A DNA stretch of 64,000 nt from a virus (taxonomy: Duplodnaviria; Caudoviricetes): IMG/VR virus record IMGVR_UViG_3300030433_001936, positions 1 to 64,000 of that record; one strand, given 5' to 3'. The notes beneath the pieces were generated by a model that did not search any database, was not told the DNA's origin, and worked only from the letters and a program-made list of their open reading frames with translations. Numbering within the stretch: position 1 is the stretch's first letter; each line of letters starts with the position of its first letter. Position numbers and translations under genes: made by a program. Positions 8,009 to 30,267 of this stretch are shown piece by piece.

Positions 8009-9522
8009 AACAACGCCTCCAATCTTTCTGCTTCAATTCCGAGTTGCATCAAAGTCGGGTCGCGCCATGTCATGATGTCCTCCTCCTTGACACCCCATTC
8101 AGACAGTAGTTCATCACCTTTCTTGTCTGACCAATTATCGTATTTCACCAATTTTTCCAACTGGTCTCTTCGCTGTTTGGCGATTGCGCCCTTTCGTGGG
8201 GTGTCAATGTATTCCAACACATTGTTGGCTTGATTCTTCTTCAAACGCAGATGTGGTTCAACACCTTTCAACACCTTTCGCACATCGGCTTTGGAGTAAA
8301 ATTGTAGTCGGTGTTGGCTTCGCTTACTGCTTTTTTGATACAGTTTCAAATCCAATTGCAACACGCCACATCCGAGTGTCTTTTGCAGTTCTTCACAATG
8401 CACTTTGCCCCGTTCACCCGTGGCAATGATGCCCACACGGGGTTCACCACGCTTGGTAATGGTGATATATCCATCAGCGTCAATGAAGCCAGCAGCGTAT
8501 GCCCACGGGTCTTTGATAATCAGCCCGCCACCATCATCTTTCAATACCCAACTGTTGCGCTTCACACCTTTGACGATGTTCAATTCATCCCCATAGATTC
8601 GCATCAACCCACTTAGTTTGTTTGGTGTCAATCCTTTCAGTGCTTGACCCGATTCAATGAGATTGTTCATGATTGTGCGACTTGACATTTCGCCATGTTG
8701 CGATAATTGGTCAACTGCAAGATTCAACCATGCCATTTCGGATTTATTGAGTGCATCCAACGAATGTAGGTTAGTTCTCCACATTTTCTTGGCATCATCC
8801 TTCAAATCATGCGATTTTACCCACAATTCTTTGTCTTCGGTAGTCCATTCGTCTTCCTTTTCAAGCAGTGTGTTGATGTCGGTTTCTGCTTGTTTATACA
8901 GATTACATGCGTGAATCAGCACCCCTTTCTTCGTTTCTGCGTGTTTTGTGAGTGCTTTCAAATCACGGTCAGTCAAACCGATTGATTTGATGGTTGGAAT
9001 GTAGCCATCCGACCATGAAATTGATGATAGTGCGCCATTGATTTCATCTTGCTTCATCAAACGCACGATGTTTATCAGTTCATCAATCTCGCTCTTCACC
9101 ATTTTATGTTCCCTTCGTGCATATTTGAGTTCCTTCACCATGTCGTGAGCAGATTTGCCGAATGTGTCAAACCAATGCACAGATTTTGCAAGACCACCCG
9201 ATGCAGGTGGTTGTTCGGCTTCGTTTGCACCCGTCAGTTTTTCAGCCATGCTTTGGATTTGTTGTTGTTGTTGCATTTGACCATCGGGCAAGTCCTTTTT
9301 GCCTTCGGATGGTGTCAATTGACCGCCACTTTCACTGTTTGTGTCGGGATTTTCGTTTGCTTCGGGCGCACCCATGATGCTTTGCCCTTGTTGGGGTGGC
9401 GCACCCTTCAACAGTGGGTGTTGATACAGATGCGAACACATTTTGATGACGCTTTCGTGGTTTTCAACCTCAAATGGGATGTCAAAAACATCGGAAACCA
9501 ATAGACTGCCCCACATTTTCAT
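8005..9522 (-). CDS. Protein with C-terminal single-motif LAGLIDADG endonuclease domain and long helical N-terminus
   Basis: WAYAAGFIDADGYITI..GCG..RLQFYSKADVRKVLKGVEPHLRLKKNQA. Confidence 0.8.
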   Translation of the reverse strand: MKMWGSLLVSDVFDIPFEVENHESVIKMCSHLYQHPLLKGAPPQQGQSIMGAPEANENPDTNSESGGQLTPSEGKKDLPDGQMQQQQQIQSMAEKLTGANEAEQPPASGGLAKSVHWFDTFGKSAHDMVKELKYARREHKMVKSEIDELINIVRLMKQDEINGALSSISWSDGYIPTIKSIGLTDRDLKALTKHAETKKGVLIHACNLYKQAETDINTLLEKEDEWTTEDKELWVKSHDLKDDAKKMWRTNLHSLDALNKSEMAWLNLAVDQLSQHGEMSSRTIMNNLIESGQALKGLTPNKLSGLMRIYGDELNIVKGVKRNSWVLKDDGGGLIIKDPWAYAAGFIDADGYITITKRGEPRVGIIATGERGKVHCEELQKTLGCGVLQLDLKLYQKSSKRSQHRLQFYSKADVRKVLKGVEPHLRLKKNQANNVLEYIDTPRKGAIAKQRRDQLEKLVKYDNWSDKKGDELLSEWGVKEEDIMTWRDPTLMQLGIEAERLEALL

Positions 9523-10946
9523 ATCCCCAACACGCTTTCAGGAAACACATCGCCAATTTCATCCAAATCAACGATGCGGTCCTTGAACTCGGTAGTAGCC
9601 CAGTGAGCCAACGCTAAAGAGATTACCATGTCATCGTGCCGACCAATGGATTCCAATTTACCTGTCTTTGACATACCGAACAACAACAGTTCTTGCTTCA
9701 ATTCCGCCATCATATCACGGGAATAATCGTCGCCAGTGGGCAATGTTATCTGTTCCCGTTCAAATTTCAACACCAAACCCATCAGCAATGATTCACGCTT
9801 GGTCTTTGACGATATGAATGTCTTAATTGGCAGGTCTGTGTTAGCACGGAGTTCAGTTGCGAACACCCTTTGGAAGTGGTTGGCTTCCAATTCAATCACT
9901 TCGGGACGGAATTTGCTGTTCAGTCGTGTGATTTCCATGATTTGTGAACGGAAGTCCATGCCTTTTTTCCGTGTGATATGGACGATTTCCAACTGATTGG
10001 GGGTATCGGAAGGCATACGCAACACGGTCATCACGGTATAGTCGGCTTGTCGGTCAGATGAAATGGCTGGGTCCCAGCCAATGAAGTACTGGTCGTCATC
10101 ATTGCCACCGTCCTTTTCGGTATATGCCCGACTGACCAATGTGTGGTGGCGAGATTCGCATGGTGCGAGTACACTTGACGGGAATAAACTGGATGAATCG
10201 TCAATTGGTTCGCACAGATATTCACGGGTGAATGCAACTGCGGGCATATCCCGTCTTCGTGCTTCCAACGCATCCAAATCCCATCGCTCTGGCCACAATG
10301 GTTCGCCTTGCGGGTTGATGGCGGGGTATGTTTCCACCAAATACCCTGGCTTTGCTTCCAATTCGGTGTAAAGGTCAGTTGGTGTGAACGGTGTGCCGAC
10401 AATGCACAGTTGTGAAGTGTGGTGGAGTGTCGGAACGAGAACTTCATAGAACCATGATGCAACACGCTTCAGTTCGGTTTCAGTTGTTCCCCACAGAATG
10501 TCATCGCAAAGAATGATGTCGGGGTGAGCGCCACGAACACCACCGCCAACCGACTTGGCAGTGATACGAGAACCGTTGGTGAATCCGAAATATGTCTTTG
10601 CCCATGCATCACGCTTCTTCATTTTCGCCAACATTGGGATGCTTTCAATCATGTCATTGAGAAATCGCATGTGGCGGATGGTCTGGTCAAGACTGTGGCT
10701 GAAAATCATGGCATCCGTGTTGGGGGTGAAGCACACCTTCCACAACAAAAACGACAAGAATGCCACTGATTTACCGTGGTCGCGAGATGCTTTGACGCAA
10801 TATCGGTTATGCGTCATCAAATTGTCAATCCACTTGGCGTGATGATTGGCTAACTGCCATCCGCATATGTCTTCAAAGAAGAATTGGAAGTCTTTCTTGC
10901 ACATTTCAAAGTCAATCTCTTGAATGACTTCGTCAATGTTGCTCAA
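9519..10946 (-). CDS. terL: Terminase large subunit
   Basis: Walker A-like ASRDHGKS, Walker B ILCDD, VGTP coupling motif, nuclease IGWDPA, IELEAN, HDDMVISLALA. Confidence 0.93.
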   Translation of the reverse strand: MSNIDEVIQEIDFEMCKKDFQFFFEDICGWQLANHHAKWIDNLMTHNRYCVKASRDHGKSVAFLSFLLWKVCFTPNTDAMIFSHSLDQTIRHMRFLNDMIESIPMLAKMKKRDAWAKTYFGFTNGSRITAKSVGGGVRGAHPDIILCDDILWGTTETELKRVASWFYEVLVPTLHHTSQLCIVGTPFTPTDLYTELEAKPGYLVETYPAINPQGEPLWPERWDLDALEARRRDMPAVAFTREYLCEPIDDSSSLFPSSVLAPCESRHHTLVSRAYTEKDGGNDDDQYFIGWDPAISSDRQADYTVMTVLRMPSDTPNQLEIVHITRKKGMDFRSQIMEITRLNSKFRPEVIELEANHFQRVFATELRANTDLPIKTFISSKTKRESLLMGLVLKFEREQITLPTGDDYSRDMMAELKQELLLFGMSKTGKLESIGRHDDMVISLALAHWATTEFKDRIVDLDEIGDVFPESVLGI

Positions 10947-15941: not shown

Positions 15942-16378
15942 ACGAAATCCTCCACTATTGATTCAAAGGTGGAACGGATACGGGATGCCAAATTGTGATA
16001 GAAGTCATGGATTTCAGCAGGACCTGTAAATGGTCGTGCCATGTCATCACAAAATTGGTCAAATTGGTTGACCATCAAAGCAAAGCGTTGGCGCAATGGC
16101 CAGGCTTCTTCGGGGTCATCGTTTTCATATACGGCTTCAACGGTATCACGGAGCATTGCTACAAATTCATAGCGTGAATCTGCCCAACCTTCGGGGGTTG
16201 GTGCGATTCGCCCGACCAAATCCACCCAAACTCCAACGCTCGCTTGAAGCGTGTTGAAGAATGTGATGACATCTTCTTCGGGGATTGCGCCTTCTTCGGT
16301 CAAAATTTCTGCGCGTGGCATTTCCACACACATTAAATCGGCTACGGGAACGGAAACATAAGTCGGTTTGTCATTCAT
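15938..16378 (-). CDS. Hypothetical acidic helical protein
   Basis: 146 aa in operon context. Confidence 0.65.
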   Translation of the reverse strand: MNDKPTYVSVPVADLMCVEMPRAEILTEEGAIPEEDVITFFNTLQASVGVWVDLVGRIAPTPEGWADSRYEFVAMLRDTVEAVYENDDPEEAWPLRQRFALMVNQFDQFCDDMARPFTGPAEIHDFYHNLASRIRSTFESIVEDFV

Positions 16379-17072
16379 CTTGGCTCACCTCAATTACATC
16401 CGACGCATCCGTATTCAATAAGGATTCCCGCACCCGTCGCCATGTGTCGGGCGATTCTTTCGCCAATTCAATCTTCATGATGTTGATGGTGTCTGCCTTC
16501 ATATTGGTTTCAGACAACGACATCCCCGTGCCGTCTTGGATTTTGATGATGTCCTTCACCGTTTCACGGACTTCTTTGCTCAAGCCCGTCAAATTACGGA
16601 CATATTGCGGGTCATTTCTGTCGGCTTCATCCAACATCAATTCCAATTCCCCGTTCAACCGTTCAGCGTTCTTTCGCAGTTGGTCAATCTCTTCGCCAGC
16701 AGCCAACGCAATGATTGGGGCTGCTGATGCTTTGACGATTGGCTTCAAATGATGACGCATGTGGTGATAAACAGTGGATTCAGCACATCCCAATAGTTCT
16801 GCAATGTCAGCAGATGGGAAGCCTTCAATCATGTAGCGATGTTCAAGTTCTGCCCGTTGGTCGGATGTGCAAACTACGCATTGTGAATTTGAACCCATGT
16901 GATATTCGCCCATGTGATTGCGAAAATGGCGGTCAGATGTGCCTTCACGCCATCCCATGTCCTTATCCAATTGCTTCGGGACACTGATTCCCGACACCAA
17001 ATCCTGTTCAAAAGAATCGCGTGATTCATGCACACAAAAGGGACATGACTTGCGTGTGATTCTCTCCGCCAT
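16371..17072 (-). CDS. Putative terminase small subunit (two Zn/HTH units plus coiled coil)
   Basis: CPFCVH..RHFRNH and CVVCTS..SADIAELLGCAESTVYHHMRHH, followed by a helical oligomerisation-like region; first gene of the packaging operon. Confidence 0.5.
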   Translation of the reverse strand: MAERITRKSCPFCVHESRDSFEQDLVSGISVPKQLDKDMGWREGTSDRHFRNHMGEYHMGSNSQCVVCTSDQRAELEHRYMIEGFPSADIAELLGCAESTVYHHMRHHLKPIVKASAAPIIALAAGEEIDQLRKNAERLNGELELMLDEADRNDPQYVRNLTGLSKEVRETVKDIIKIQDGTGMSLSETNMKADTINIMKIELAKESPDTWRRVRESLLNTDASDVIEVSQDE

Positions 17073-17120: not shown

Positions 17121-17363
17121 ATGGGCAGGTTGGGTCGTGCGCCAAAAAAGAACTCGTTGCCAAAAACACTGAAAGAATTGGGTGTAGCGGGCATTGACAT
17201 TGCGTTGGGGCGCACAGTTTCGCCCGCCAAAGCGAATGAACGGTTGAGTATGTGCAAAGATTGTGAATACTACAACGGTTCACGGTGCAAACTGTGTGGT
17301 TGCTTTATGCAAACCAAAGTGGGGTTGAAGAATTCCACTTGCCCGATTCATAAATGGGACTAG
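17121..17363 (+). CDS. Small Cys-rich protein of a common phage family (RL..CxxC..CxxCGC..CP..KW)
   Basis: RLSMCKDCEYYNGSRCKLCGCFMQTKVGLKNSTCPIHKW. Confidence 0.75.
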   Translation: MGRLGRAPKKNSLPKTLKELGVAGIDIALGRTVSPAKANERLSMCKDCEYYNGSRCKLCGCFMQTKVGLKNSTCPIHKWD

Positions 17364-17620
17364 CGAGATAACCGACGATATACCGTCCCCGCCAATACGA
17401 AGAACCCCATGACCATGACGACAATCCATGTGAGATTGTCGCCACTCAATTGGTTGCCACGGGTTGCCAAAATAAGGAATGCACCGAGGAATAGTGAAAT
17501 CACTTGCACCATAATCATGTCAACCATGACACTGTTGCTTGTGTCATGCATGATTTTCCAGCCATCGGATAGTTGACCCACAATGCTTGTTTGTGATTTT
17601 GGTTGTTGACCTGGTTGCAA
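17360..17620 (-). CDS. Small two-TM membrane protein (holin-like topology)
   Basis: Two hydrophobic segments (MIMVQVISLFLGAFLILA; LTWIVVMVMGFFVLAGTVY) and a basic C-terminus. Confidence 0.65.
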   Translation of the reverse strand: MQPGQQPKSQTSIVGQLSDGWKIMHDTSNSVMVDMIMVQVISLFLGAFLILATRGNQLSGDNLTWIVVMVMGFFVLAGTVYRRLSR

Positions 17621-17627
17621 AATTGTA

Positions 17628-18236
17628 TCACCGTCCCGTCAATACTGACCTTACAAATCCACCCGCACCTTGTCCCACAGATTGCAACACCCCTGGGTCT
17701 GCCAATGCGTTATCCAACATACCTTGCATCATGCTTTGTTGTGCCATTTGCAACAGTTGTTGCTGTTGCATGAGCGATTGTTGCACGGCTTGATTGCAGT
17801 TTGATTGCAATTGCGTCATGTCGGCTTGGATGTTTTCGGGTGATAGCGTTTGCAAAGGCGTTGGCAACGATGTTATGTCAACACACAGGTTGCCGTCTTT
17901 GTCTTCAGTGAATTTTGCGTTGCGAAAAAACTCAACCAACGATAGGTTGACGATGTTCGCAATGATGTTGGTCAGTGTTGCGAGATTTTGACCCGATAGG
18001 AATTGTTCAACGGGGCGTTGTTGATGCAACAACCGTGAAACGATTTCCAATTCGGATGGTGGCATCACGGGTTGGTTTGGATTGTACTGACCGCCCGTTG
18101 CACCCGCCATGAACGAATTCATTGCGGATGATTGTTGCTGATACGAATTGAATTGTGGGTGAGAACCGTATTGCTGACCGCCACCCAATGCCATTGGTTG
18201 TTGCGGTTGGGCTTCTTTGTTGCTGAACCACATCAT
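17628..18236 (-). CDS. Hypothetical Gln-rich helical protein
   Basis: 202 aa in the GTPase operon. Confidence 0.65.
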   Translation of the reverse strand: MMWFSNKEAQPQQPMALGGGQQYGSHPQFNSYQQQSSAMNSFMAGATGGQYNPNQPVMPPSELEIVSRLLHQQRPVEQFLSGQNLATLTNIIANIVNLSLVEFFRNAKFTEDKDGNLCVDITSLPTPLQTLSPENIQADMTQLQSNCNQAVQQSLMQQQQLLQMAQQSMMQGMLDNALADPGVLQSVGQGAGGFVRSVLTGR

Positions 18237-18260
18237 AACACCCCAAGCATTGGCAGTTAA

Positions 18261-19226
18261 TCAGGGCTTCGGCACTGCGGGTGCATTGAATTCCACTTGA
18301 TTTTCTTGAATAAGGTCTTGCAACATGCCAACTTGTGCAACTGCAGGTTGAGCCGAAGGAGCAGCATGCAACAGCGGGCTGTTGTCGCCCAATCGTGCGA
18401 ATTGGCGTTGGTCAAACACAATAACAGTCAAATCATTCATGCCCGTTTCTTTGTTGGTGAAGTGTTGGATGGGAATGCCATCAGCCTTCAACATTCGGAA
18501 GAACTCTTCATATTTGACAAGTTGATGTGGAGTGTTGTCATTGTTTGACTTTCGCACAGCAGCGATTGGCACGGCAACGGTGGATACGCCACGCTTCAAC
18601 TTGTCTTTGAGTGTGCCTTTTTCAGTTTCGTGTGCTTTTTCTTCTTCGTCTTCCCATTGGCAAAGCAAATCGTATAGATGCAAATGTTCGGGGCAATATG
18701 TCGCAGTCAATGTTCGTCCACTGGTCACTCCTTCCCGTGCCAAAAATGCACGGGGTTGCCCACTTACTTGGTCAACGAAATACTTGTCCCAAAGGGACAA
18801 TCCCGTTTCTTCATCACGAATATCGGCATAGATGTTGCCAACGATTTGCAAAAGGTTGCCAACATCACAACCATCAACAGCACACTGCGTGGTGTTGTGA
18901 TTGTATCGGTATTTACCGCCAATCCATCGTCGTGGCGACCACCATTTGCGTTTCATTGGTTTCAACAACTGATACGCTTGCTTGATGTCTTTTCGTCTTC
19001 GTTTCTTTGGGTTCGGATGCACACTTGGATAGAAATTGACCTTCGGTATTTCAATGTGCGGTGTTTGTTCGGCAGCAGCCATCATTGCACCCTGCGCTTG
19101 AGCAGCGCTTTGTAGTTGATGCACATTCATGTTGGATTCGGCTGATAACTTCACCAAATCTGCTTGTGTGTTCATTGCCAATTGGTTGTATTGCATTTGT
19201 CGGTTCTTATCAAACATTTTTTTCAA
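18261..19226 (-). CDS. Hypothetical protein with possible Zn site
   Basis: 321 aa; CAVDGC and YCPEHLH; 4-nt overlap with the GTPase gene. Confidence 0.7.
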   Translation of the reverse strand: MKKMFDKNRQMQYNQLAMNTQADLVKLSAESNMNVHQLQSAAQAQGAMMAAAEQTPHIEIPKVNFYPSVHPNPKKRRRKDIKQAYQLLKPMKRKWWSPRRWIGGKYRYNHNTTQCAVDGCDVGNLLQIVGNIYADIRDEETGLSLWDKYFVDQVSGQPRAFLAREGVTSGRTLTATYCPEHLHLYDLLCQWEDEEEKAHETEKGTLKDKLKRGVSTVAVPIAAVRKSNNDNTPHQLVKYEEFFRMLKADGIPIQHFTNKETGMNDLTVIVFDQRQFARLGDNSPLLHAAPSAQPAVAQVGMLQDLIQENQVEFNAPAVPKP

Positions 19227-19936
19227 CTCCCTAACATGTTCATGAGACTGTTCTCAACATTCCACCCGATGCGGGTTGCCATCATACTCACCTGACATAC
19301 AACCCCATGCTTCTGCAATTTTATCATTGCGGGTCGGAATGGGTCAAAAATGCGGTGTTCCCGCAATCGTTGTTGTTGCCAAAGCACACTTGCTTGCTCA
19401 TCCCACCACTTGTCGGCTTTGTTTGCAACCAAAAATACGAACTTGGGTTTGTACTTCTTCCCTTTGATTCGTCTTGACCACCTTCGGTATCGGTATCTGC
19501 GTTCAATGATTGAATCAACGAGATATTCAAAACCTGCAATGGCATCAACAGCGGCAGTACCACCAGTTCGTGAACGGTCATCAAACATGAAAATGATTCC
19601 TTCCACTTGTCGGTCAACCATATCGTCAACCCATAGCGACCAAAATTTGCGTTCACCACCGAGGTCTGCCGAATGCACCACACGCTTTTTCCCTTCATAT
19701 CGGATACGCTTCCGTGTTGGCATTGGCAAAACATAGTCCTTGCCAATCAGTTTTTTGAAATGGGTGGTTCGGTGTTTTTCGCCCAATTCTTCCATTTCGC
19801 CAGGTGTGGTCATATACATGTCAAGTGTGGTTTTGCCGACTTCGGTAGGTCCGTAAATGCCGACCCTTCGTGGCTTCCAATAATCGTACAACTCTTTGCC
19901 GTAAAGAGCAGCACCGAGCAACACTGTTCCTGCCAA
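19223..19936 (-). CDS. Small GTPase, Ras superfamily, Arf/Sar-like
   Basis: G1 GPTEVGKTT, G3 DLGGE, VEGIIFMFDD, G4 ANKAD, G5-like SMMAT; hydrophobic N-terminal helix. Confidence 0.85.
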   Translation of the reverse strand: MAGTVLLGAALYGKELYDYWKPRRVGIYGPTEVGKTTLDMYMTTPGEMEELGEKHRTTHFKKLIGKDYVLPMPTRKRIRYEGKKRVVHSADLGGERKFWSLWVDDMVDRQVEGIIFMFDDRSRTGGTAAVDAIAGFEYLVDSIIERRYRYRRWSRRIKGKKYKPKFVFLVANKADKWWDEQASVLWQQQRLREHRIFDPFRPAMIKLQKHGVVCQVSMMATRIGWNVENSLMNMLGS

Positions 19937-20176
19937 TCAAAACAACCCCGTAATCCAACCTAGCGTTGAATTTAGAACGATGTTGTAAAGGCTCACATCC
20001 GTGTAGTATTCCACACCCGATGTGATAATAGTTGCAATTGCAGAACAAATCAATGCCTTTACCCAACCCCATGTTCGCTCATACACACGGTCAACTTGAT
20101 TTGCCATGTGCAATTGGCGCAGTGTTCCTTCAACTGCGTCGTCGCTTGGTGTTTTGAATAGCCAACCCATGTTCAT
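19937..20176 (-). CDS. Small membrane protein
   Basis: WGWVKALICSAIATIITSGV hydrophobic segment; abuts the GTPase start. Confidence 0.6.
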   Translation of the reverse strand: MNMGWLFKTPSDDAVEGTLRQLHMANQVDRVYERTWGWVKALICSAIATIITSGVEYYTDVSLYNIVLNSTLGWITGLF

Positions 20177-20757
20177 TCCTTCTTATATCGCTTGTCAGGT
20201 TTGCCATCCTTTGTCAACGGCACTTCTTTTGTCAAATCAACACCGAGATTAACTGCTTCCTTCTTGTCGGTGCGGTGTTTTGGTGGTGGATTGAATTCGG
20301 ACGGTTGTTCTTTGAATGTCTGTGGTTTCGGCTCAACAATCTGTGGGATGGCTTCATACCCTGACATTGACATTGCCATATACGCATCGGGGTTCTCTTC
20401 CAACATCCGCAACTGCTTTTCCATTTGCATCTGTCGCATTTTCAGTTCGGTTTCCAACTGTGCATTTGCAAATTGCGAGTTCATTTCACGCAATCGTGCA
20501 TCACGCACTCTTTGGGTGCGTTGCCATTGGGCTTTGCTATCCATGTTGTCTTGTAGCAACAACTTGTAAAAGAAATACGACATACCTTGCAGGGTAAATG
20601 CCCCCATTGCATATGTCAAAGCGTTGCTATATGTGTCTTGACTTTTCAGCCACAAATCTGCGTCAAACACGGCAATAGCAGCCCCAACCAAAATGGATAC
20701 GAAGCCGATAAAACCCATGACACGCAGTATGTCTTCATTCGTTTGAGCGTCTGTCAT
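20173..20757 (-). CDS. Two-TM membrane protein with cytoplasmic coiled coil
   Basis: Start moved to ATG 20757 (MTDAQTNE); two hydrophobic helices, then RDARLREMNSQFANAQLETELKMRQMQMEKQL. Confidence 0.7.
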   Translation of the reverse strand: MTDAQTNEDILRVMGFIGFVSILVGAAIAVFDADLWLKSQDTYSNALTYAMGAFTLQGMSYFFYKLLLQDNMDSKAQWQRTQRVRDARLREMNSQFANAQLETELKMRQMQMEKQLRMLEENPDAYMAMSMSGYEAIPQIVEPKPQTFKEQPSEFNPPPKHRTDKKEAVNLGVDLTKEVPLTKDGKPDKRYKKE

Positions 20758-20815: not shown

Positions 20816-20891
20816 GTATTGATATTATCATGTATTGTGTAAGACAATAATAGCCGTATTATTCCCATATGATACATGGGAATATCAATAC
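20816..20891. repeat. AT-rich dispersed element, copy A, with internal inverted repeat
   Basis: GTATTGATATTATCATGTATTGTGTAAGACAATAATAG (20816-20853); GTATTGATATT is mirrored by AATATCAATAC at 20881-20891. Confidence 0.75.
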
Positions 20892-21689: not shown

Positions 21690-21975
21690 GGCGGGTCAAT
21701 CCGAACAAGCACACCGCCACAAAATTCAGTATGATACTGAATACGAATCGTCCCCCGAGCGCATCAAATATCGGGAAGAACTCAACCGTGAGCGAAGGCG
21801 AAGGGGCATTTACGGGCGTGGTGGACCTGATGTTAGCCACACCCGTGCAAACACATTGGTGTTGGAAAGTCCACACAAAAATCGTGCGCGACACTTCAAA
21901 GAGCGTGGGACTTTGAAATCAAACCCCGCACCCATTGACCAAGCGTGGTCAGTTTTGAAGCATCAATTGGATTGA
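21661..21975 (+). CDS. Basic HNH-like protein with C-terminal AW..LK tag
   Basis: YESSPERIKYREELNRERR..GPDVSH..LVLESPHKNRAR resembles degenerate phage HNH proteins; PIDQAWSVLK at the end. Confidence 0.55.
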   Translation: MNMSAIRGIMAGQSEQAHRHKIQYDTEYESSPERIKYREELNRERRRRGIYGRGGPDVSHTRANTLVLESPHKNRARHFKERGTLKSNPAPIDQAWSVLKHQLD

Positions 21976-22765
21976 CAGTGCCAACGCCATTGTCATTCGC
22001 CCATTGCAACAATGTTTCAGTTGCCAAATTTGCACCCGACCCTTTGACAAACGGACACCCACCGATACCGCCAATGCTTGTGTCAAACTGACGAATGCCA
22101 ACATCGTATGCCATTTGCACATTGCCGATAAGCGAATCCCCATGTTCGTTTTCATGCAAATGCACTGCCCACTTTGTTGACGGCATACGGGCAATGATGT
22201 CGCCAATGCGTTGAATGGATTGAGCATCGGCAATACCCGCAGTATCTGACAACACAACGGTGTAGCCCAACAATGCCGATTGTTGCAACACATTGGCTAT
22301 GAACAAATCGTCATACTGACCGTCAGTGGGACAACCGAATGCGTGTGAGATATACACACGGATGTTTTCTTTGGGAATACCCCACAACATGCTACGGTAT
22401 GTTGCATGCAACACTGCCAACGATGAATTAAAATTTTCAGCGTTGAATGTTTCCGATGGCGATAGGCACACATTGATGTTGGTTGCGCCCACTGCTTTTG
22501 CCCGTTCCAATCCTTTTTCGTTTGGCACTAGCACACTCAAATGACACGGCAATTTTTTGATTTCATTAAATACTGTTGCAGATGCGCTCATGTTTGGCAC
22601 AAGTTTGGGATGCACAAAACTGCCGACTTCTATATTGCGGATTCCACAATCATACAATTGTTCTATCATGCTGACTTTGTCAGCCACTGACACATCACAC
22701 TTTGCAGATTGCAGACCATCACGAGGTCCGACTTCGTAAATCTCAATCGTACTGCTTCCCTTCAT
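21896..22765 (-). CDS. hmgL: Hydroxymethylglutaryl-CoA lyase (DRE-TIM family), auxiliary metabolic gene
   Basis: IYEVGPRDGLQS, IEVGSFVHPKLVPNM, LSDTAG, AVHLH, GIGGCPF..GANLATE; start moved to ATG 22765. Confidence 0.88.
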   Translation of the reverse strand: MKGSSTIEIYEVGPRDGLQSAKCDVSVADKVSMIEQLYDCGIRNIEVGSFVHPKLVPNMSASATVFNEIKKLPCHLSVLVPNEKGLERAKAVGATNINVCLSPSETFNAENFNSSLAVLHATYRSMLWGIPKENIRVYISHAFGCPTDGQYDDLFIANVLQQSALLGYTVVLSDTAGIADAQSIQRIGDIIARMPSTKWAVHLHENEHGDSLIGNVQMAYDVGIRQFDTSIGGIGGCPFVKGSGANLATETLLQWANDNGVGTVNPIDASKLTTLGQWVRGLISKSHAL

Positions 22766-22938
22766 GACGCAATCCACCCATGCACATGGCTTGCAGTTCT
22801 TCGTCATTTTGGAAAACAACAACATCTTTTCCGATGTCATCAAACAACGAAATTATATGCTCAATCAACGCTAATCCAACAATTGCGGTAATGACCCAAC
22901 CCCACATATGAAGGGGTATGTCGGTGCAAAAAATAAAC

Positions 22939-25900
22939 CTATCTGCCTTTGAGTAGTGAATCCCACGCTAAATCAATGGGGTCGCCACGAGTGAAACCTG
23001 TTTCTTCATTCCATCGTGTGCCTTGAAATGTCGGAATGTTTTGTTCGCCTTCCGTTTGGTCGTGTTCACTTGGCAAGTTCAATCCCATTTCACCTGCGAT
23101 GTTCCTTTCATTGGGTGGGTGCGGTTCATTGTCAAACGCATTCGTCATTCTGCGTGTGCGTCGTGGGACTCGTGTGCGTCCTTGAATTTCTTCTTGTTCA
23201 CGCTTCATGTCAGCCATCATGTCGTCGTTATCGGGCATGATACCCATACGAGTGTCGGGCATACCCGTGTTTGGGTTGATGAAGACTTCAAGACCAGGGT
23301 TGGGTATCTCCATGCCCGCTTCTTTCATGGCTTCCAAAATTTCGGGTGGGATGCCATCCATTGTCAGTGCTTCGGGATAGTTCTGCATAAGCCACCGTGC
23401 AAAGTCAACATTGTCGTCTTCCAAATCCATTTCCACTGCAGGTCTTGAATATGGGCGCACTCTTCTCATCATCTCAAACGGGTGGTGTCCGTGTGCCGCT
23501 GCATCTTCAAGGAAACCGTGCATTCGTGCCATTGCTTTATCGTCAATATCATTGTAGGTGATGTCGCCCGCTTCCAATGCTTCAAACAACGCTTGCATAG
23601 TCTTTGGGTCTGCCTTTGCACCAGTGGCTAATGATTTGAAGTGGTCAAATGCCAAATCTTCGGGTTCGTTGTCAACTAATATCTCGGGCAAGTCCATCCC
23701 AAACCTTTCATTCAACATGTTGCTGAGTGCGTAGTGCATTGGGTGTTGTGAATTGAATTCGTTTGGTTGCATTTGAGATGCAAGCAAATCAGCATATTTG
23801 TTGGGGTCGTTGTAAAACGCCATCATTTCTTCATCGCTCAACGGACTACCAGGATGCCCGCCCGCTGCTTGTCGCTCAAACATCGCTTCCATTTCTTTTC
23901 GGGCGCGTTCTTGTGCGCGTTGTTGCCGAATCTGCTCTTCTTCTTTTCGTCGCTTACCACGGTTGCGAGCCAATGACCCACTAAGGAATGCAGTTTTACC
24001 CGCTTGGTCTAGTCCCGCTTTTCCTTCGGGTCGCCTTTTTCCTTGTGGCTTTCCTGCTTTGCGGTCTTCGGCACTCAATCCCATACGACCTTGTTGCGCG
24101 ATTTTGTTGCGCTCAGCCTCTTTGCGTCCACTGCTTTGTGGTCGCACATCACGGTTTTTGCGATTCCTTGCGCCAGTGCCACGCAATCGTTCTTCAAGCA
24201 CATCGCCCCTCTCTTCTTGGTCTTCTTCATCCCAATCCAACTTGGCAAACAATGTAGCCCATGATTTCAATGTGTCAGTGCTAAATTGCGGTTCGTCAAA
24301 AGCGCGTGGATAACCTGTAGTGTCAATTGCTTCTTCATTGTCAGGACCGCCTTGGGTCGGGTAATTTCGCCCACCTTGTCCCGCTCTTTTCCGATAAGGG
24401 GCGAGAGAGTCATAGGAATTTCGTGCGCGTCCCCCTCTCAATTCCACTTTTGTACTGGGTTTTTCAAAAATCGGACCTGGACTGTTTGCTTCCAATGCTT
24501 CTTGTAATGCTTGTTCACTTACTCTTTCCATCTGTCTGCTTCTCATGCCCTGTATAGCAGGGTGCATAGTTTGACGGGAAAAATGTCCGTGTACTTGCTC
24601 AATATCAGCCTTGAGAACTGCCCATGCAATATCCATCGGTTCGCCCGCATTCTTTTGGTCGTCATCGCCTTCTTCGTCTTTGATGTCAAACAACGACTTC
24701 TTTGGTTTTTCAGCACCTTTGGCTCGTTGTGATGTGTTCCTTCGTGCGGGCGGTGCAGGTCTTGGATTCTTCTTTTGAGATTCAGCCAATGCGCCAATGT
24801 CAGCGAACATGCGTTCTTCATTGCGCTTTTGTTCTTCGGTCATCACTGACCCTTTGGGGTCAACGGGCAGATTCGCCATTGCTTGTTCACGATTCTTCTG
24901 TTCTCTTGCCCTTCTTCGGTCAGCCAATTTTTGTGCGGGCGTTCTTTGACCGCTTTCTTCCAAATCAGTTGTGATTGCACCGCCAGTGGCTTCCGCCATC
25001 TCCCGTGCCATCTCAAGCAATCTGTCGTTTTCTTTTTCTTCTTCAGTTCGCTCGTCCCGTGGCAAATGCCGTCTTGTGTAGTTTCGTAGTGGCGCTCGCA
25101 TTGGCAATCCTTCAACTCGTTTGGTGTCTTTGACACCCGCTTCTCGTTGTTTTGCACTTTGCACATTCATGCGCCCCGTTTTGAATTCACGACCATGCAC
25201 ACGACCAATGGCTTCATTCAATCGGTCTTCTGCCGACATTTCATCCAATTTTTTGCGTTGCTTTGGTGTGATGACACGCACACGCTTCCCTGCGTGGTCT
25301 TTGTCATCACCGATAAATTCACGATACCAATTCGCAGTTTCTTCACCACGGTCTTTCACTGAAACCTTATTCGCACCGAGTCTGCGTTGACCTTTTTCGG
25401 GTGCAAGCAGATTGTGAACATCAACGGGAATGCCACGACCCATTGCTTGCATCATTGCATCATTCGTCCAATTGTCATGCAGTGGATGGTGAATTCCCAA
25501 CATGTGCGTGGCATTGTCAAGAATTTTACCGTTGCGTGTGCCGATGGCAGTGTATTTTCCATCGCCTTTGAAATCGGGCGGGATAACTTTGACGGGAATG
25601 TTGTTGTCATTCGCCCATCGCTCAACCATTTCATCAACGCCACCATGACCGCCCGTGATGATTGAATCGGGCATACCGTTCTTGTCAATCCATGCACCCA
25701 TCTGGTCATCAATAACACCCAATGCGTCATAGTACTCATTCAACCGATTCATTGGGTTGATTGGCAACAATTCGTTTGGTGGGAAATTGCCGAAGTCTTT
25801 GTGTCCGAGAACTGCCAAATGTGTTCCTTCCAATTCGGGCTTTGGTGCTGCTGGCGCTGCTGTTTTTGCGGGCGCTCGCACTTTTGCCTTTGGTGCAGTG

Positions 25901-26109
25901 GCGGGTTTGGGTTCGTTGCCCGTTCCGCCAAATTCGGGGGTCAAGTTTGCCATTGTCCCGCCCGTCAACACTGACAACAAATCTTTTGCTTCCGCAATTT
26001 GTCGCTTTTGGTCAGCGTATTCGTCTTCTTCTTCGTCGTCGTCATCGGAAGCATAGTCAAACAATGACTTCTGCTTCAGCATATACCATGCCTTGTCAAT
26101 AGCCGACAT
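22939..26109 (-). CDS. Large multi-segment protein with YspA/SLOG-like domain and three AW..LK tags
   Basis: Start moved to ATG 26109 (MSAIDKAWYMLK). SLOG-like LAVLGHKDF..IITGGHGGVDEMVERWANDNNIPVKVIPPDF..RNGKILDNATHMLGI. Confidence 0.75.
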   Translation of the reverse strand: MSAIDKAWYMLKQKSLFDYASDDDDEEEDEYADQKRQIAEAKDLLSVLTGGTMANLTPEFGGTGNEPKPATAPKAKVRAPAKTAAPAAPKPELEGTHLAVLGHKDFGNFPPNELLPINPMNRLNEYYDALGVIDDQMGAWIDKNGMPDSIITGGHGGVDEMVERWANDNNIPVKVIPPDFKGDGKYTAIGTRNGKILDNATHMLGIHHPLHDNWTNDAMMQAMGRGIPVDVHNLLAPEKGQRRLGANKVSVKDRGEETANWYREFIGDDKDHAGKRVRVITPKQRKKLDEMSAEDRLNEAIGRVHGREFKTGRMNVQSAKQREAGVKDTKRVEGLPMRAPLRNYTRRHLPRDERTEEEKENDRLLEMAREMAEATGGAITTDLEESGQRTPAQKLADRRRAREQKNREQAMANLPVDPKGSVMTEEQKRNEERMFADIGALAESQKKNPRPAPPARRNTSQRAKGAEKPKKSLFDIKDEEGDDDQKNAGEPMDIAWAVLKADIEQVHGHFSRQTMHPAIQGMRSRQMERVSEQALQEALEANSPGPIFEKPSTKVELRGGRARNSYDSLAPYRKRAGQGGRNYPTQGGPDNEEAIDTTGYPRAFDEPQFSTDTLKSWATLFAKLDWDEEDQEERGDVLEERLRGTGARNRKNRDVRPQSSGRKEAERNKIAQQGRMGLSAEDRKAGKPQGKRRPEGKAGLDQAGKTAFLSGSLARNRGKRRKEEEQIRQQRAQERARKEMEAMFERQAAGGHPGSPLSDEEMMAFYNDPNKYADLLASQMQPNEFNSQHPMHYALSNMLNERFGMDLPEILVDNEPEDLAFDHFKSLATGAKADPKTMQALFEALEAGDITYNDIDDKAMARMHGFLEDAAAHGHHPFEMMRRVRPYSRPAVEMDLEDDNVDFARWLMQNYPEALTMDGIPPEILEAMKEAGMEIPNPGLEVFINPNTGMPDTRMGIMPDNDDMMADMKREQEEIQGRTRVPRRTRRMTNAFDNEPHPPNERNIAGEMGLNLPSEHDQTEGEQNIPTFQGTRWNEETGFTRGDPIDLAWDSLLKGR

Positions 26110-26140
26110 ATGTAGTGGGATGTCAGCGCAGGTTATGGAG

Positions 26141-26605
26141 TTAACCACGATTTCGCCTTCTTTTTTCCGCCAACACTTTTTCAACCGCTTTGCGGTCAAA
26201 TTGGCGCAAATGTGCGACATTGCGTGGCATCACCACAATTTGTGATGGGTCGGGCATGTCGTCTTTACCGACAACACGCACCCCACCACCGTCTTTGATA
26301 TTCCGTGCAGGTCCTGTTGTTGGCATATCACCAATCGGTGCATCACCACGAATACCCACTGCAACATAATTGCCTTCGGGGTCGGCTCGCCATCGTGATG
26401 CACCATGACCATCTGCGCCCGATGGGTCATCGCCCATCATTGACCAAAATTGCTCGGGATACTTGCCTTCCAAATAGTCGGCAATGTGTTGCAATGGTTG
26501 TGCGCTGATTTGCTGAATTGGTGGTTGGTCGGGGTAATCGGGAATCCAATTGTACAACTTTGTTTGTCGTTTCAACAACAACCATGCAGTGTCAATTGGC
26601 AACAT
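26141..26605 (-). CDS. Hypothetical protein with N-terminal AW..LK tag
   Basis: MLPIDTAWLLLK; start moved to ATG 26605. Confidence 0.7.
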   Translation of the reverse strand: MLPIDTAWLLLKRQTKLYNWIPDYPDQPPIQQISAQPLQHIADYLEGKYPEQFWSMMGDDPSGADGHGASRWRADPEGNYVAVGIRGDAPIGDMPTTGPARNIKDGGGVRVVGKDDMPDPSQIVVMPRNVAHLRQFDRKAVEKVLAEKRRRNRG

Positions 26606-26610
26606 GCATA

Positions 26611-27408
26611 TCACGGAAACCTTTCGTCATATGCCTGTTGTGCATCAGCAATCGCTTGCAATGCGCTTTGCTCATAATCACCAGTTATTGCTTCTCGCTT
26701 GTCAGTCATTGCATCACCCTTTTTCCGTGCGTCTGCAATTGCATCCATTTCATCACTATTAGTGCGTCCATGACTGTGTGGATAAAGTGCTAATTGCCTT
26801 CGCAATTTGTTTGGGTTCATATTTGCCAATCTCGGATAATTCTTACTGTATGCTTCTAATGCATCTTCTAGTGCCGTTGCCCATACATTGTTGGACGGGC
26901 TATCGCCCAATGGCACTTGTTCAGTCGTGCGATAACCGCCACGGGATGTCGCAGTTTTGCGTTTATCCATGTCCCCACGAGTCCATCGTCGTGGCACACC
27001 TTCATGTATTGGCAATCTGCTCAATTCATCTTTTTGCTCAATGGCGTTTCTCAAAGCACGACCACGCAGTTTGCCTTTCATCACACTCCATGCCATATCA
27101 ATGGGGTCGCCTTTGACCATCGTTGGCTTTCCACCAACACCTTGCTTTTTACTGCGTTTGCGTTGCGTCATTGCCCGCTTTTCGCCTTTGCTGTGATGCC
27201 GTGCAAGTTTTGGTGTCTTGCTACTGACACGCTTTGATGGTCGGCACTTTGGGTATCCACGCTTGCTTTTGTTCGCTTTACTGCGACCACACGGGGGATG
27301 CGAACCGTCTTTGTTCGTGCGTGATACATCCACCCACTTTTCTTTGAACCAACGATTCAGGTTTTTGACAACCATGACATCTTGGCAACCGCACAATTCA
27401 CCATCCAT
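26611..27408 (-). CDS. Basic phage-type domain (RWFKEKWVD..CGR..YPKCRP) plus internal AW..MK tag
   Basis: LNRWFKEKWVDVS..PCGRS..YPKCRPSKRVSSKTPK, then DPIDMAWSVMK. Confidence 0.7.
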   Translation of the reverse strand: MDGELCGCQDVMVVKNLNRWFKEKWVDVSRTNKDGSHPPCGRSKANKSKRGYPKCRPSKRVSSKTPKLARHHSKGEKRAMTQRKRSKKQGVGGKPTMVKGDPIDMAWSVMKGKLRGRALRNAIEQKDELSRLPIHEGVPRRWTRGDMDKRKTATSRGGYRTTEQVPLGDSPSNNVWATALEDALEAYSKNYPRLANMNPNKLRRQLALYPHSHGRTNSDEMDAIADARKKGDAMTDKREAITGDYEQSALQAIADAQQAYDERFP

Positions 27409-28130
27409 TAACCAAACCTCCGTCTGTCTTTTCTTCGTTCAGCGGCAATCAGTTTGTCCCATTGTTCGGCAGTTTTTATGTTATTCGCTCTTCGCAAATG
27501 TGGATTTCTTGCTCGCAATCCCATAATTTCTCTAAACCGTTGTTCTTTTTGCCGTGGGGTCAATTTGTTGGAAGTCAACGATATTGTACCATCCTTTCCA
27601 ACTGATGTGCGAGTCGGTGAATCAAGTTGTTGTATGATGTCCGCGATGCCCCGCATGGGATGGTCTTCGCTAACTCTTTGACCAAACATAGCAGCAAGCA
27701 TCCCCTTTGCACCTGCGTTTCTATGTTGATGAGCATTGAGGTCATGCATCAATTCTCGGTGTGCTGTAAGTGCTGATTCGGGATACTCCATAATGACGGC
27801 TGGGTGTTCGGTTCGTGCAGTTGCATCTATGTCTTGACTATATTTGCCATATTTACTGTCTCTTAAATCGCCCACCCCTGGTTGGTTATCTGTGGTTGCA
27901 TGACCCCATTCGTGTGCGTTCAATCTCGCCAACGCATTTGCAGTGAATTTGTCAGCGTCAGCGTCAGAAAAGCCCATGTTTCGTCCATAAGGCAAAATCG
28001 CAGCCAAATTGACATTTACCGTATCAGTCCACGGGTCATAATGCCCCGCCCTGTCCCGTCCATCAAACTCCAAATTGTAGTCAGCGTCATCACTTTTCAA
28101 AAATGACCAAGCCGTATCAAATGGGGTCAT
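27408..28130 (-). CDS. Putative zincin-like metallopeptidase with N-terminal AW..LK tag
   Basis: MTPFDTAWSFLK; G.YDP..DTVNVNL; HEWGH followed by TEHPA. Confidence 0.55.
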   Translation of the reverse strand: MTPFDTAWSFLKSDDADYNLEFDGRDRAGHYDPWTDTVNVNLAAILPYGRNMGFSDADADKFTANALARLNAHEWGHATTDNQPGVGDLRDSKYGKYSQDIDATARTEHPAVIMEYPESALTAHRELMHDLNAHQHRNAGAKGMLAAMFGQRVSEDHPMRGIADIIQQLDSPTRTSVGKDGTISLTSNKLTPRQKEQRFREIMGLRARNPHLRRANNIKTAEQWDKLIAAERRKDRRRFG

Positions 28131-28318
28131 TTCTTCTTCCCCTTCCCCTTAAACTTGCCACGGCAGTATTGAACTGCCCAACCATTGGCATAAGCGGAAG
28201 GATAGACCTTGAATTTGCGCTTAGCAGCCGCTTTTCCTGCGGGGCATAACTTCTTTTCCAAATGGTCAAACGCAGCGTTTGTAGCAACACACAAATCGCA
28301 ATTGCCACACCCCGTCAT
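28127..28318 (-). CDS. Small basic phage-type protein (YPSAYAN motif)
   Basis: AKRKFKVYPSAYANGWAVQ. Confidence 0.7.
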   Translation of the reverse strand: MTGCGNCDLCVATNAAFDHLEKKLCPAGKAAAKRKFKVYPSAYANGWAVQYCRGKFKGKGKKK

Positions 28319-28322
28319 GTCA

Positions 28323-28859
28323 TCACCACTTCACTTTGTCTGCCCAATACGCTGCTGACATCGGACCTCGTGCGATGTTCTTGCGGTGTCGTGCTTTGAA
28401 TGACCTTTGCCGTGCCTTTTCCTTCGGTGTCTTTGGATTTGCACCCGCACCTGACTTACCTTGTTGACCAAATCGGATGGTTTTCACTTTGCCACCTGAC
28501 CGTGCCACTACAATGTGCGATTTCTTGCCATGACCTGGTGTGCGCTTCGGTTTGTTGTATCCCGACACACCCGCACGGGCAAGCCGTGGGTCTTTTTTGC
28601 CCTTTGCAAATGACGCATTGATACTCTTTCGGAAACGCTTCATCTTCTTCATTTTGCATCCCGTTTCGGGTGTGCAATCGCACATCCCCATTGATGCAAT
28701 GTCGCATAATTCGTCGTCATCTGACGGATAATGCAGTTGCAATGATTTGTTGGTCGTTTCATTTTCCAACTTGCATTCACCATCGGCACAACCGCATCCA
28801 CGGGCTTTGCCTACGCACCCCGTTTTCAAAAACAACCATGCAGTTTCGTGTGCCGTCAT
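28323..28859 (-). CDS. Tagged protein with Cys-rich N-terminus and basic phage-type C-terminal domain
   Basis: MTAHETAWLFLK; KDPRLARAGVSGYNKPKRTP..IRFGQQG..SFKARH..SAAYWADKVKW. Confidence 0.75.
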   Translation of the reverse strand: MTAHETAWLFLKTGCVGKARGCGCADGECKLENETTNKSLQLHYPSDDDELCDIASMGMCDCTPETGCKMKKMKRFRKSINASFAKGKKDPRLARAGVSGYNKPKRTPGHGKKSHIVVARSGGKVKTIRFGQQGKSGAGANPKTPKEKARQRSFKARHRKNIARGPMSAAYWADKVKW

Positions 28860-28890
28860 CACACTACCCGATGCGAAAGAATGCAATAAA

Positions 28891-29502
28891 CTAATCGTTC
28901 TTCAATAATTGCCATGCAATATCCATTGGCTCACCTTTCATTTGGTCTTGCCACGCCATCCGCTCATCTGCATTCTGAATTCCAAAATCGGGATATTCGT
29001 CAGTTTCATTGAAAACTCTGCTCATGGCTTGCTGATTGTTATCTGTGTTGGGTTGCATGTCAATTGATGTATGACCACGCAAATTCAACTCGTCTAACAC
29101 TTGCTTGCGTTCTTCCGCATGCTCAGGCTTAATCATCCACAACAAATTGCCTTCCAATTCTTCCGTAGTGATGTTAGCATACGGGCGTGGGTGCAATCCC
29201 AACTCCATTTGCCGTTGGCGTTCTATCTGTTCGTCTTTGGATTCTTGTGGTTGGGCATCGTCTTCAACTGCACCAATGCTCAACAACAAATCCAACAAAC
29301 CTTGCATCACTTCGGGTGGCATATCATCATCGTCATCGTCATCCACTTTCAACAAACGATACGCCAATTTCATTGGCTCACTGTAGCGGAACATGGCATC
29401 CTTTTCCGAAGAACTACCCCCTTCACCACATCGTTCTTCGCATATCATCCGCTGATGCGGAATCGCATGTTCTTGACCACAATAAAAACAACTGTTGCTC
29501 AT
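28891..29502 (-). CDS. Acidic hypothetical protein with two AW/AY..LK tags
   Basis: EPMKLAYRLLK and EPMDIAWQLLK. Confidence 0.7.
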   Translation of the reverse strand: MSNSCFYCGQEHAIPHQRMICEERCGEGGSSSEKDAMFRYSEPMKLAYRLLKVDDDDDDDMPPEVMQGLLDLLLSIGAVEDDAQPQESKDEQIERQRQMELGLHPRPYANITTEELEGNLLWMIKPEHAEERKQVLDELNLRGHTSIDMQPNTDNNQQAMSRVFNETDEYPDFGIQNADERMAWQDQMKGEPMDIAWQLLKND

Positions 29503-29517
29503 TTTTATGACCCCTTA

Positions 29518-30267
29518 TCACATTCTTCCTGCCTGTCTTTCTGATTCTGCCCACGCTAACCATCGGTCTAATTCCCGTTGGAAATCTTCGGGGTCAATCG
29601 CCAATGTTGGGTCATGACCCACTGCATTGTTGATGTATTTGATTGCGTCATTCATGTATTGATGCCCGTCAGGGTGGTCGTCCATTATCGCATGATGAGC
29701 GAACTGCAACGGCAAATAGTCGGGCATGTGCTGTTCCATCAATTGACGAAACATGCCAGGATGTTTCTGTTGAAGCGCATCAATCCACCCTTGACCCATA
29801 TCAGTGAAACCATCAAGGAATGGCGAGAACTTCATGTCGGGGTTGCGAGCCAACACATGCGGAAGCATTTCAGCCAAGCCTTCAGCGTATCCACGACCAC
29901 GGACATCTTCATCCACATGTAGTGCTAAATCCCGTTCTGTGCTTATGTCAGGTACAGTTTCTTCCGACAACGGGTGATACACAAGTTCACCATTCGGCAT
30001 AAGCGTTGACCCAATTTCCAAACTCCCACGGTATGTAGGTCCGTATGGAGTGGGCTTTTCGCCAATATGCCCAGTCATTTGCCCACGCTCTTTGTCATGC
30101 TCAAAATAAACGGGAACATCCTTTTTCTCTTCGGGGTCATAGAACTGACCTTCATATTCATCCATGTCGTCATCAGTGTTGACCCGTCGCACGGTTTCGT
30201 GCCGTAGTGGGGCTTTGACGACATGCGTTTTGAGAAGCAACCATGCTTGCTCAAACGCCCCCTGCAT
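29518..30267 (-). CDS. Tagged protein with GNAT-like acetyl-CoA-binding motif
   Basis: MQGAFEQAWLLLK; LHVDEDVRGRGYAEGL resembles GNAT motif A. Confidence 0.55.
   Translation of the reverse strand: MQGAFEQAWLLLKTHVVKAPLRHETVRRVNTDDDMDEYEGQFYDPEEKKDVPVYFEHDKERGQMTGHIGEKPTPYGPTYRGSLEIGSTLMPNGELVYHPLSEETVPDISTERDLALHVDEDVRGRGYAEGLAEMLPHVLARNPDMKFSPFLDGFTDMGQGWIDALQQKHPGMFRQLMEQHMPDYLPLQFAHHAIMDDHPDGHQYMNDAIKYINNAVGHDPTLAIDPEDFQRELDRWLAWAESERQAGRM

Follow-up and report, generated by a model that had tools for sequence, protein, structure and literature searches.

A conserved six-gene membrane cassette with an Arf-like small GTPase among the late genes of a magrovirus-like genome

The DNA analyzed here (the window) is the first 64 kb of the 74.8-kb linear IMG/VR virus record IMGVR_UViG_3300030433_001936, from what looks, by gene content, like a group A-like magrovirus, a tailed virus of the abundant marine group II (MGII) archaea. 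Positions 17360 to 20757 of the window hold six tightly packed open reading frames (ORFs), g1 to g6, all on the minus strand and separated by intergenic gaps of 0 to 24 nt, in agreement with a preliminary description of this region as six co-oriented, overlapping or abutting genes. The third of these, g3, is predicted to encode a small GTPase of the Ras superfamily that is closest to Arf/Arl. The cassette appears to place a small-GTPase membrane switch in a viral setting without precedent, together with partners of no known family, and its first five genes are inherited as one block across deep divergence. It is read here, tentatively, as a virus membrane module under the control of a GTP switch, placed among magrovirus late genes and acting in late membrane remodeling or egress.

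The small GTPase and its viral family

The predicted product of g3 (positions 19223 to 19936, minus strand) is 237 amino acids (aa) long, and its motifs and fold are those of a Ras-superfamily small GTPase (TRAFAC class). The G1 (G-x4-GKT), G3 (DLGG), and G4 (NKAD) boxes, which had been pointed out in the preliminary description, and a further G5-like M-A-T were mostly conserved across 32 homologues and again in a second set of 23 homologues (G1 here, GPTEVGKT), with S-A in place of the G5-like M-A-T in distant members. The long switch I region carries an insert of ~25 residues and contains invariant TPGEM and R-T-x-H motifs, and a basic insert, RRYRYRRWSRRIKGKKYKPK, precedes G4. Switch II, for which the Arf pattern is DVGGQxxxRxxW, reads DLGGE-RKFWSLW, with a near-invariant Trp102, and the string that had been likened to Arf, DLGGERKFWSLW, was present and aligned with DLGGQLHFRNLW of the Arf-like chain PDB 8oun_A. 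The residue after DxGG, at the position of the Arf catalytic Gln, is Glu in this virus, as had been noted; across 125 full-length family members, the position is variable (E, 67; Q, 37; D, 14; H, 5; N, 1; and A, 1).

With identity to Arf, Sar, Roc, and ArvA under 20%, g3 was placed by profile and fold comparisons. Its AlphaFold2 model (predicted local distance difference test [pLDDT], 76) matched more than 500 small-GTPase chains in Foldseek at an E value of <1e-3. The best structural Z score was 16.3 over 162 residues (root mean square deviation, 2.3), and the top 30 structural matches were all Arf, Arl, or Asgard ArfR chains (Z, 15.1 to 16.3), ahead of Rag (14.7), Sar1 (14.1), and Rab5 (14.0) by ~1.5 to 2. 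A profile of 23 family members compared with PDB gave the same order, with 8oun_A first (E value, 6e-6; alignment spanning the N-terminal helix, the P-loop, and DLGGQ..F.NLW), followed by Arl8A (2.8e-4; Arl8A/B, ~3e-4), Rab33B (9e-4), and KRas (0.06). The lead of Arf/Arl over other GTPases in predicted fold and profile is thus modest but consistent. No Pfam, NCBIfam, or PHROG model was passed by g3. The Pfam Arf family (PF00025) was the commonest weak match, in 11 of 23 members (best E value, 0.0048; none passing), and g3 itself scored 13.8 bits against a gathering cutoff of 22.3. “Arf-like,” the term used in the preliminary description, is a fair description of the resemblance because fold and profile both match Arf/Arl/Asgard ArfR best; formal membership in the Pfam Arf family is not implied by it.

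The hydrophobic N-terminal helix that had been proposed for the GTPase was also recovered. A helix was predicted at residues 2 to 20 (pLDDT, 58 to 70), was kept among homologues as a hydrophobic aromatic helix, and superposed on the Arf1 helix in full-length structures (2ksq and 9c59). Its amphipathicity is weak (mean hydrophobicity, 0.2 to 0.4; moment, 0.3 to 0.5). The Gly2 used for N-myristoylation is absent from g3, which starts M-A-G, and from its homologues (MS.., MV.., or MA..). N-myristoylation is not known to occur in archaea, and Asgard ArfRs may lack Gly2 too.

All 436 homologues of g3 in a large protein database were marine metagenome proteins, and a phmmer search with g3 against 1.84 billion representative proteins returned only 74 matches, which formed a closed family with no strong cellular match. 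The family profile found no match in 200 other genomes of the presumed host order; the only match in a Poseidoniales single-cell genome lay on a viral contig, and five further genome-collection matches were to contigs that were short or looked viral, placed in bins of unrelated organisms. No match to the GTPase was found by tblastn at an E value of ≤1e-5 in a collection of phages and archaeal viruses that included cultured haloarchaeal tailed viruses. Base composition was not distinct from that of the rest of the window. Magroviruses are known to capture host genes, for example, those for thermosome subunits and HMG-CoA lyase (PMC5434244, PMC10160649), and g3 could in principle be a recently captured host GTPase serving as an accessory gene among unrelated neighbors, the case that the preliminary description had set against its own proposal. 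This explanation is contradicted by the closed family, the blank host-order search, the indistinct base composition, and the conservation of the neighboring genes alongside the GTPase, and it is highly improbable. As judged from sequence, the GTPase family is closed and confined to viruses and is not a recent host capture, since homologues were lacking in the 200 other host-order genomes. The family may reach into other, possibly bacterial, viruses, because one divergent GTPase relative (P0277; Logan SRR31155651; 32% identity), which itself has a single relative, lies on an 11-kb contig that also carries Tad2-like, Acb5, and integrase genes.

Conservation, composition, and setting of the cassette

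Gene order was kept in every related locus examined, which answers the question of synteny raised in the preliminary description. So far as computation could address them, the three refuting conditions named there came out in favor of its proposal or at least not against it. Among IMG/VR loci with a GTPase of 60 to 85% identity, the order g1 to g6 was kept in 13 of 13 and was followed by the same gene for a helix-turn-helix (HTH)/Zn protein (window positions 16371 to 17072). Six loci from the genome collection extended this synteny to GTPases of only 30% identity. At 43%, 36%, and 30% GTPase identity, only some members were recognized by BLAST; ORF sizes, order, and build were unchanged, with a protein of two transmembrane (TM) segments and a charged helix, a TM protein of ~75 aa, the GTPase, a Cys/His protein, and a Q/G/M-rich protein. 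The GTPase was the best-conserved member; at ~60% GTPase identity, g4 and g2 were each ~50% identical, and g1, g5, and g6 were ~30 to 40% identical. A very divergent GTPase (P0273) was preceded by four small single-TM genes.

In a census anchored on the large terminase gene (TerL) and restricted to loci with at least 9.5 kb upstream of it, the GTPase gene lay 7.1 to 9.2 kb upstream of TerL in 23 of 24 loci. The exception (G328; C1:1500-9500, L102), from an AT-rich lineage with 36% TerL identity, has its five-gene core (136, 75, 222, 225, and 244 aa) directly after a gene for a 460-aa capsid-like protein, ~13 kb downstream of TerL. Because this locus holds g1 to g5 elsewhere in the genome, the five-gene core has moved as a block.

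Hydrophobic segments in the partner proteins were located by Kyte-Doolittle hydropathy with a 19-residue window. The 194-aa membrane protein encoded by g1 (positions 20173 to 20757, minus strand) has one strong hydrophobic segment and a weaker second one that scores as TM in homologues, followed by a long charged helical region and a Lys-rich tail. Its start was set at the ATG at 20757, which has GAGGGAG 8 nt upstream and is the point from which distant homologues begin to align. Proteins of equal build were found in L019, L020, L021, and G328. The two membrane segments of the protein originally described as two-TM plus coiled-coil therefore stand, and its coiled coil has as support a single Pfam match at threshold (MXRA7_helical), which was taken as a composition effect. 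The ~77-aa product of g2 (19937 to 20170, minus strand), whose homologues begin MGWLF, has a conserved soluble N terminus (MGWLFKTPSDD...) and then one TM segment, matching its earlier description as a small TM protein. A holin identity for g2 was dropped, as matches to Phage_holin_3_1 (E value, 0.025) and phrog_126 (E value, 0.15) were not reproduced in five homologues. The TTG start of g3 directly abuts the g2 stop.

The 318-aa Cys/His protein encoded by g4 (18261 to 19217, minus strand) starts at an ATG 5 nt past the GTPase stop, with GGGAG upstream, and had 606 homologues. Residues C115, C178, H181, and H183 were invariant in 24 aligned homologues, and C120 was conserved in 90%, forming a cluster C-x4-C ... 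C-P-E-H-L-H within TYCPEHLHLY. Of the Zn-site protein proposed earlier, the conserved Cys/His cluster was confirmed, and the metal site is plausible from the arrangement of these residues. The AlphaFold2 model of g4 (pLDDT, 61; core, ~80) corresponded to no known fold, with nothing above a structural Z score of 4.5 in a search with the model. Homeodomain-like matches were rejected as a fold since they cover a low-confidence N-terminal three-helix stretch alone, and a CxC6 match was treated as a composition effect. The 202-aa protein encoded by g5 (17628 to 18236, minus strand) is indeed Gln rich (15.8% Gln), with a central domain that is conserved and a hydrophobic, Gly-rich tail at the C terminus; analogues were found in L020, L021, and G328, and no Pfam or PHROG family was matched. 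The ESM Atlas gave no usable match for g4 or g5. The 86-aa product of g6 (17360 to 17620, minus strand) has the two TM segments attributed to it previously and a basic C terminus (YRRLSR). It is the least constant cassette member, with no counterpart recognized in the two most distant loci, L021 and G328. A holin-type build is seen in both g6 (86 aa, two TM segments, and YRRLSR) and g2 (77 aa and one TM segment), which lie in late genes, and these features are generic; no holin family was matched in five g6 homologues. Among 36 window ORFs, none matched the PHROG “lysis” category at an E value of ≤0.01, in keeping with the earlier failure to recognize an endolysin or other lysis gene in the window.

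The downstream edge of the cassette is marked by a convergent gene for an 80-aa Cys-rich protein (17121 to 17363, plus strand; phrog_13558, E value, 3e-14) that overlaps the end of g6 by 4 nt. This gene is not a constant part of the cassette: it was undetected in L016/L017 and unrecognizable in L019 to L021, and in L020 a 94-aa Cys-rich ORF on the cassette strand fills its place (position only compared). The downstream operon limit is soft, as conserved co-oriented genes go on past the Cys-rich gene. Directly downstream of the cassette, positions 16371 to 17072 (minus strand) encode the 233-aa HTH/Zn protein, which has an N-terminal CxxC and an HTH of the sigma-70 region 4 type, is kept in all loci except the most distant, L021, and may be a small terminase or a late regulator. 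Upstream of g1, a 225-nt gap contains the AT-rich palindrome TATTGT-N5-ACAATA (20833 to 20849). The window has two copies of this palindrome (the second at 32737 to 32753), against 0.14 expected by chance, and both sit in AT-rich gaps heading gene blocks; the copy at 20833, which heads the cassette, is a candidate promoter or operator. A sigma-70 promoter scan, a model inapplicable to archaea, was at chance level, and the count of terminator-like sequences was ~2 standard deviations above shuffles. In RNA libraries, one “viral metagenome” RNA-Seq run gave contigs of a relative 95 to 99% identical across the whole region, and two marine metatranscriptome runs gave short, 100% identical contigs within g4. 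These were not counted as transcription or as an operon transcript, being contigs only, with DNA carryover possible and no contig adequately bridging two genes.

The cassette lies in a minus-strand block (positions 1 to 30300) that carries the portal gene (5815 to 7692), TerL (9519 to 10946), a gene for a 1,536-aa protein with an ATP-dependent ligase domain, and an HMG-CoA-lyase-like gene; it is co-oriented with the packaging and head genes and located 7 to 9 kb upstream of the terminase gene. A 505-aa ORF with an HNH endonuclease domain (8005 to 9522, minus strand; phrog_5046, E value, 2.5e-10) lies between TerL and the portal gene. The HMG-CoA-lyase-family (HMGL-like) gene (21896 to 22843, minus strand; Pfam E value, 2e-27) lies two genes upstream of the cassette and occupies a comparable position in several relatives. 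A short peptide tag, [I/M/F][D/E]xAWxx[L/M]K, occurs 11 times in the window (21934 to 30255 and 51058 to 51084), placed N-terminally, internally, or C-terminally in otherwise unrelated proteins just upstream of the cassette, and in none of the six cassette proteins. The plus-strand block encodes an SNF2 helicase, an RFC-like ATPase, and a family B polymerase (PolB), of which the full-length matches (≥80% coverage) in the phage collection were haloarchaeal tailed viruses; a 197-aa protein of a PHROG anti-restriction family is encoded at 38358 to 38951 (plus strand; phrog_2059, E value, 6e-17).

Group A magroviruses are characterized by an archaeal-type replisome, an SNF2 helicase, and a ligase gene located within the structural block (PMC5434244), and HMG-CoA lyase is a magrovirus auxiliary metabolic gene (PMC10160649). 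All of these features, together with packaging genes and an MGII association, were found for the present virus. The association comes from a related 106-kb contig (L020; AG-422-I20_NODE_2, 106,262 bases) within a single-cell genome labeled Candidatus Poseidoniales, in which the whole cassette is present, with a GTPase 36% identical to g3. This contig is a direct physical tie between the virus type and its presumed host. Because the gene features match those published and the contig lies in a single-cell genome with this label, the virus was taken to be a magrovirus-type (Magrovirales) tailed virus of MGII archaea.

Candidate roles of the cassette

Late membrane remodeling or egress was ranked first among possible roles of the cassette, still short of probable, for several reasons. 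Its only recognizable enzyme is of the switch type that controls membrane binding and is accompanied by three membrane partners, and the C-terminal tail of g5 is hydrophobic and Gly rich. The cassette is a core element in the late block ahead of the packaging genes, with no other lysis candidate among the 36 ORFs, and the egress players of tailed archaeal viruses are “completely uncharacterized” according to a 2024 review (PMC10791045). The proposed part in lysis or egress is read from which genes the cassette contains and where they lie. In the mechanism envisaged, the GTPase in its GTP state would expose its N-terminal hydrophobic helix like Arf/Sar1 and dock on the host cytoplasmic membrane, where the cytoplasmic parts of g1 and g2 could serve as receptors or exchange factors for it. 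The Cys/His protein g4, linked to the GTPase in translation, would serve as an effector or GTPase activator, the Gln-rich g5 with its hydrophobic tail as a multivalent scaffold, and the hairpin protein g6, where present, as the source of a holin-like membrane lesion. Late in infection, these proteins would jointly bend, vesiculate, or perforate the membrane, leading to virion release. The variation at the catalytic position (E, Q, D, or H) suggests a slow intrinsic hydrolysis finished by a partner, which would suit a timer.

Several observations weigh against this role. The N-terminal segment of g3 is short and weakly amphipathic, and Pfam and PHROG searches detected no homology of any cassette member to a holin, spanin, Arf GAP, or Arf GEF. 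The most holin-like member, g6, is without a recognizable counterpart in L021 and G328 and can be dispensed with in some lineages. The haloarchaeal tailed viruses lyse their hosts and have no detectable GTPase homologue; the cassette, if an egress system, is therefore not general to archaeal tailed viruses. Contacts among the six proteins are proposed only, and the position of the cassette inside the morphogenesis block would fit assembly equally well.

Assembly is accordingly one of the alternatives, with the GTPase and its partners serving head, tail, or packaging steps as a platform or chaperone anchored in the membrane and not acting on the membrane in its own right. The cassette sits inside the co-oriented late block between putative head-internal proteins bearing the tag and the packaging genes; in G328, the capsid-like gene and three small head-type genes immediately precede it; and in L013 (6712 to 7525), two small genes that begin with the shared AW..LLK tag are inserted between the GTPase gene and g4. 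Set against these placements, none of the six cassette proteins has the tag, the GTPase is missing from related haloarchaeal viruses that have the same morphogenetic block, and we know of no requirement for membrane proteins or a small GTPase in Caudoviricetes assembly; a morphogenetic role is rather unlikely. The same anatomy, an Arf-like switch with TM partners, could also serve a membrane takeover unrelated to release, such as superinfection exclusion, changes to the envelope or to division, or a membrane-bound compartment for replication or assembly. OapB (ArvB, PF09846), part of the vesiculating operon compared below, was found in 0 of 61 host-order genomes versus 74 of 151 in the phylum, and because the sampled host order lacks it, the virus may supply a vesiculation-type function that the host lacks. 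Such a takeover is possible, if doubtful, given that the cassette is contiguous and co-oriented with the late genes and not with the plus-strand replication block and that it is present in nearly all relatives at a fixed position, as is more usual for a core step than for an accessory takeover gene.

A further alternative is protein targeting, in which the GTPase would be a membrane-anchored, Arf-like receptor resembling SR-beta that inserts or sorts viral membrane proteins. SR-beta is itself Arf-like with an N-terminal anchor, and Pfam SRPRB was weakly matched by 2 of 23 GTPase members. These matches were far below threshold, the N-terminal segment of g3 lacks the length and hydrophobicity of a TM anchor, and the cassette contains no SRP-type partner, all of which makes targeting improbable.

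Late remodeling or egress keeps its place as the favored, tentative role, and its strongest form is a speculative one. Under this form, the machinery encoded by magroviruses would be the first GTPase-driven system for egress or membrane scission in a tailed virus of prokaryotes, with an Arf-type switch, equipped with a receptor, effector, and scaffold of its own, doing in a non-Asgard archaeon the work of Arf/Sar1 coats in eukaryotes. If this were true, the family would represent an independent virus-borne Arf-like branch, relevant to the origin of the Arf family. The literature searched on magroviruses, archaeal Caudoviricetes, and egress does not mention a GTPase for such viruses. The present analysis adds the searches of the host order and phylum, the comparisons with ArvA, ArvB, and ArvC, the terminase census, the relocated core, and the catalytic-position census. 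As a core, deeply conserved, and apparently membrane-directed set with a recognizable enzyme, the cassette offers a concrete and testable egress candidate despite an uncultivable host.

Comparison with known systems

The best functional analogy is with the archaeal vesiculating GTPase operon ArvA-ArvB-ArvC (OapABC), which has been shown to drive membrane vesiculation in an archaeon (PMC10927574) and was taken for comparison from two OapB-bearing loci. The two systems share a small GTPase with an N-terminal helix, amphipathic in ArvA and predicted to be weakly so in g3, and an operon with a Zn-type protein, in the viral case a putative one. They differ in G3, which is DTPG in the ArvA homologue versus DxGG in the viral GTPase, and in the absence of TM proteins from the Arv operon. 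Alignment of the viral GTPase family with the ArvA homologue by hhalign covered 39 columns around the P-loop (15 residues by BLASTP), and no ArvA-like protein was among the 74 phmmer matches of g3. Comparison of g4 with ArvB and ArvC by hhalign gave probabilities of 0.1% and 0.5%, and no cassette protein had a Pfam match to the ArvB (OapB, PF09846) or ArvC (Zn-ribbon) families. Because the sequence likeness does not extend past the P-loop and g4 is not related to either ArvB or ArvC, the ArvA parallel in the preliminary description stands as a functional analogy and falls as a sequence relation; by these comparisons, it is analogy and not homology.

Small, late-encoded proteins with one or two TM segments and charged ends, upstream of packaging genes, are shared with holin lysis cassettes such as lambda S-R-Rz. 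Lambda lysis genes precede the terminase genes, and many phages keep lysis genes ahead of packaging genes. The two TM segments and basic C terminus of g6 also recall class II holins. The viral cassette differs in lacking holin family homology and an endolysin, and no lysis cassette known to us contains a small GTPase. An endolysin is not expected for a host without murein (PMC10791045). The likeness to SR-beta consists of an Arf-like GTPase with a membrane-held N terminus and the weak SRPRB matches; it is limited by the subthreshold scores of those matches and by the lack of a true TM anchor and of an SR-alpha-like partner.

The closest structural and profile relatives of the viral GTPase are in the Arf family (Arl8, Arf1, Arf6, Arl1, Arl3, Asgard ArfRs such as GerdArfR1 [8oum], and the Asgard-type Arf-like chain 8oun_A), with which it shares DxGG, the aromatic-x-x-W of switch II, and an N-terminal helix placed as in Arf1. 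It differs from them in its ~16 to 20% identity, in scores below the Pfam Arf gathering cutoff in 23 of 23 members scanned, in its switch I and basic pre-G4 inserts, in the lack of Gly2, in the variable Gln position, and in being encoded by a virus of non-Asgard archaea. Ras-superfamily GTPases occur on other mobile elements and viruses: giant eukaryotic viruses carry Rab/Ras-like GTPases, and small GTPases on Asgard mobile elements cluster with host Arf (PMC11529989). Those proteins group with host Arf or Rab families and look captured, whereas the magrovirus family appears to have no cellular counterpart and has its own fixed partners. Arf-like GTPases with dedicated partners are thereby extended to viruses of non-Asgard archaea, which bears on the evolution of GTPase-controlled membrane remodeling.

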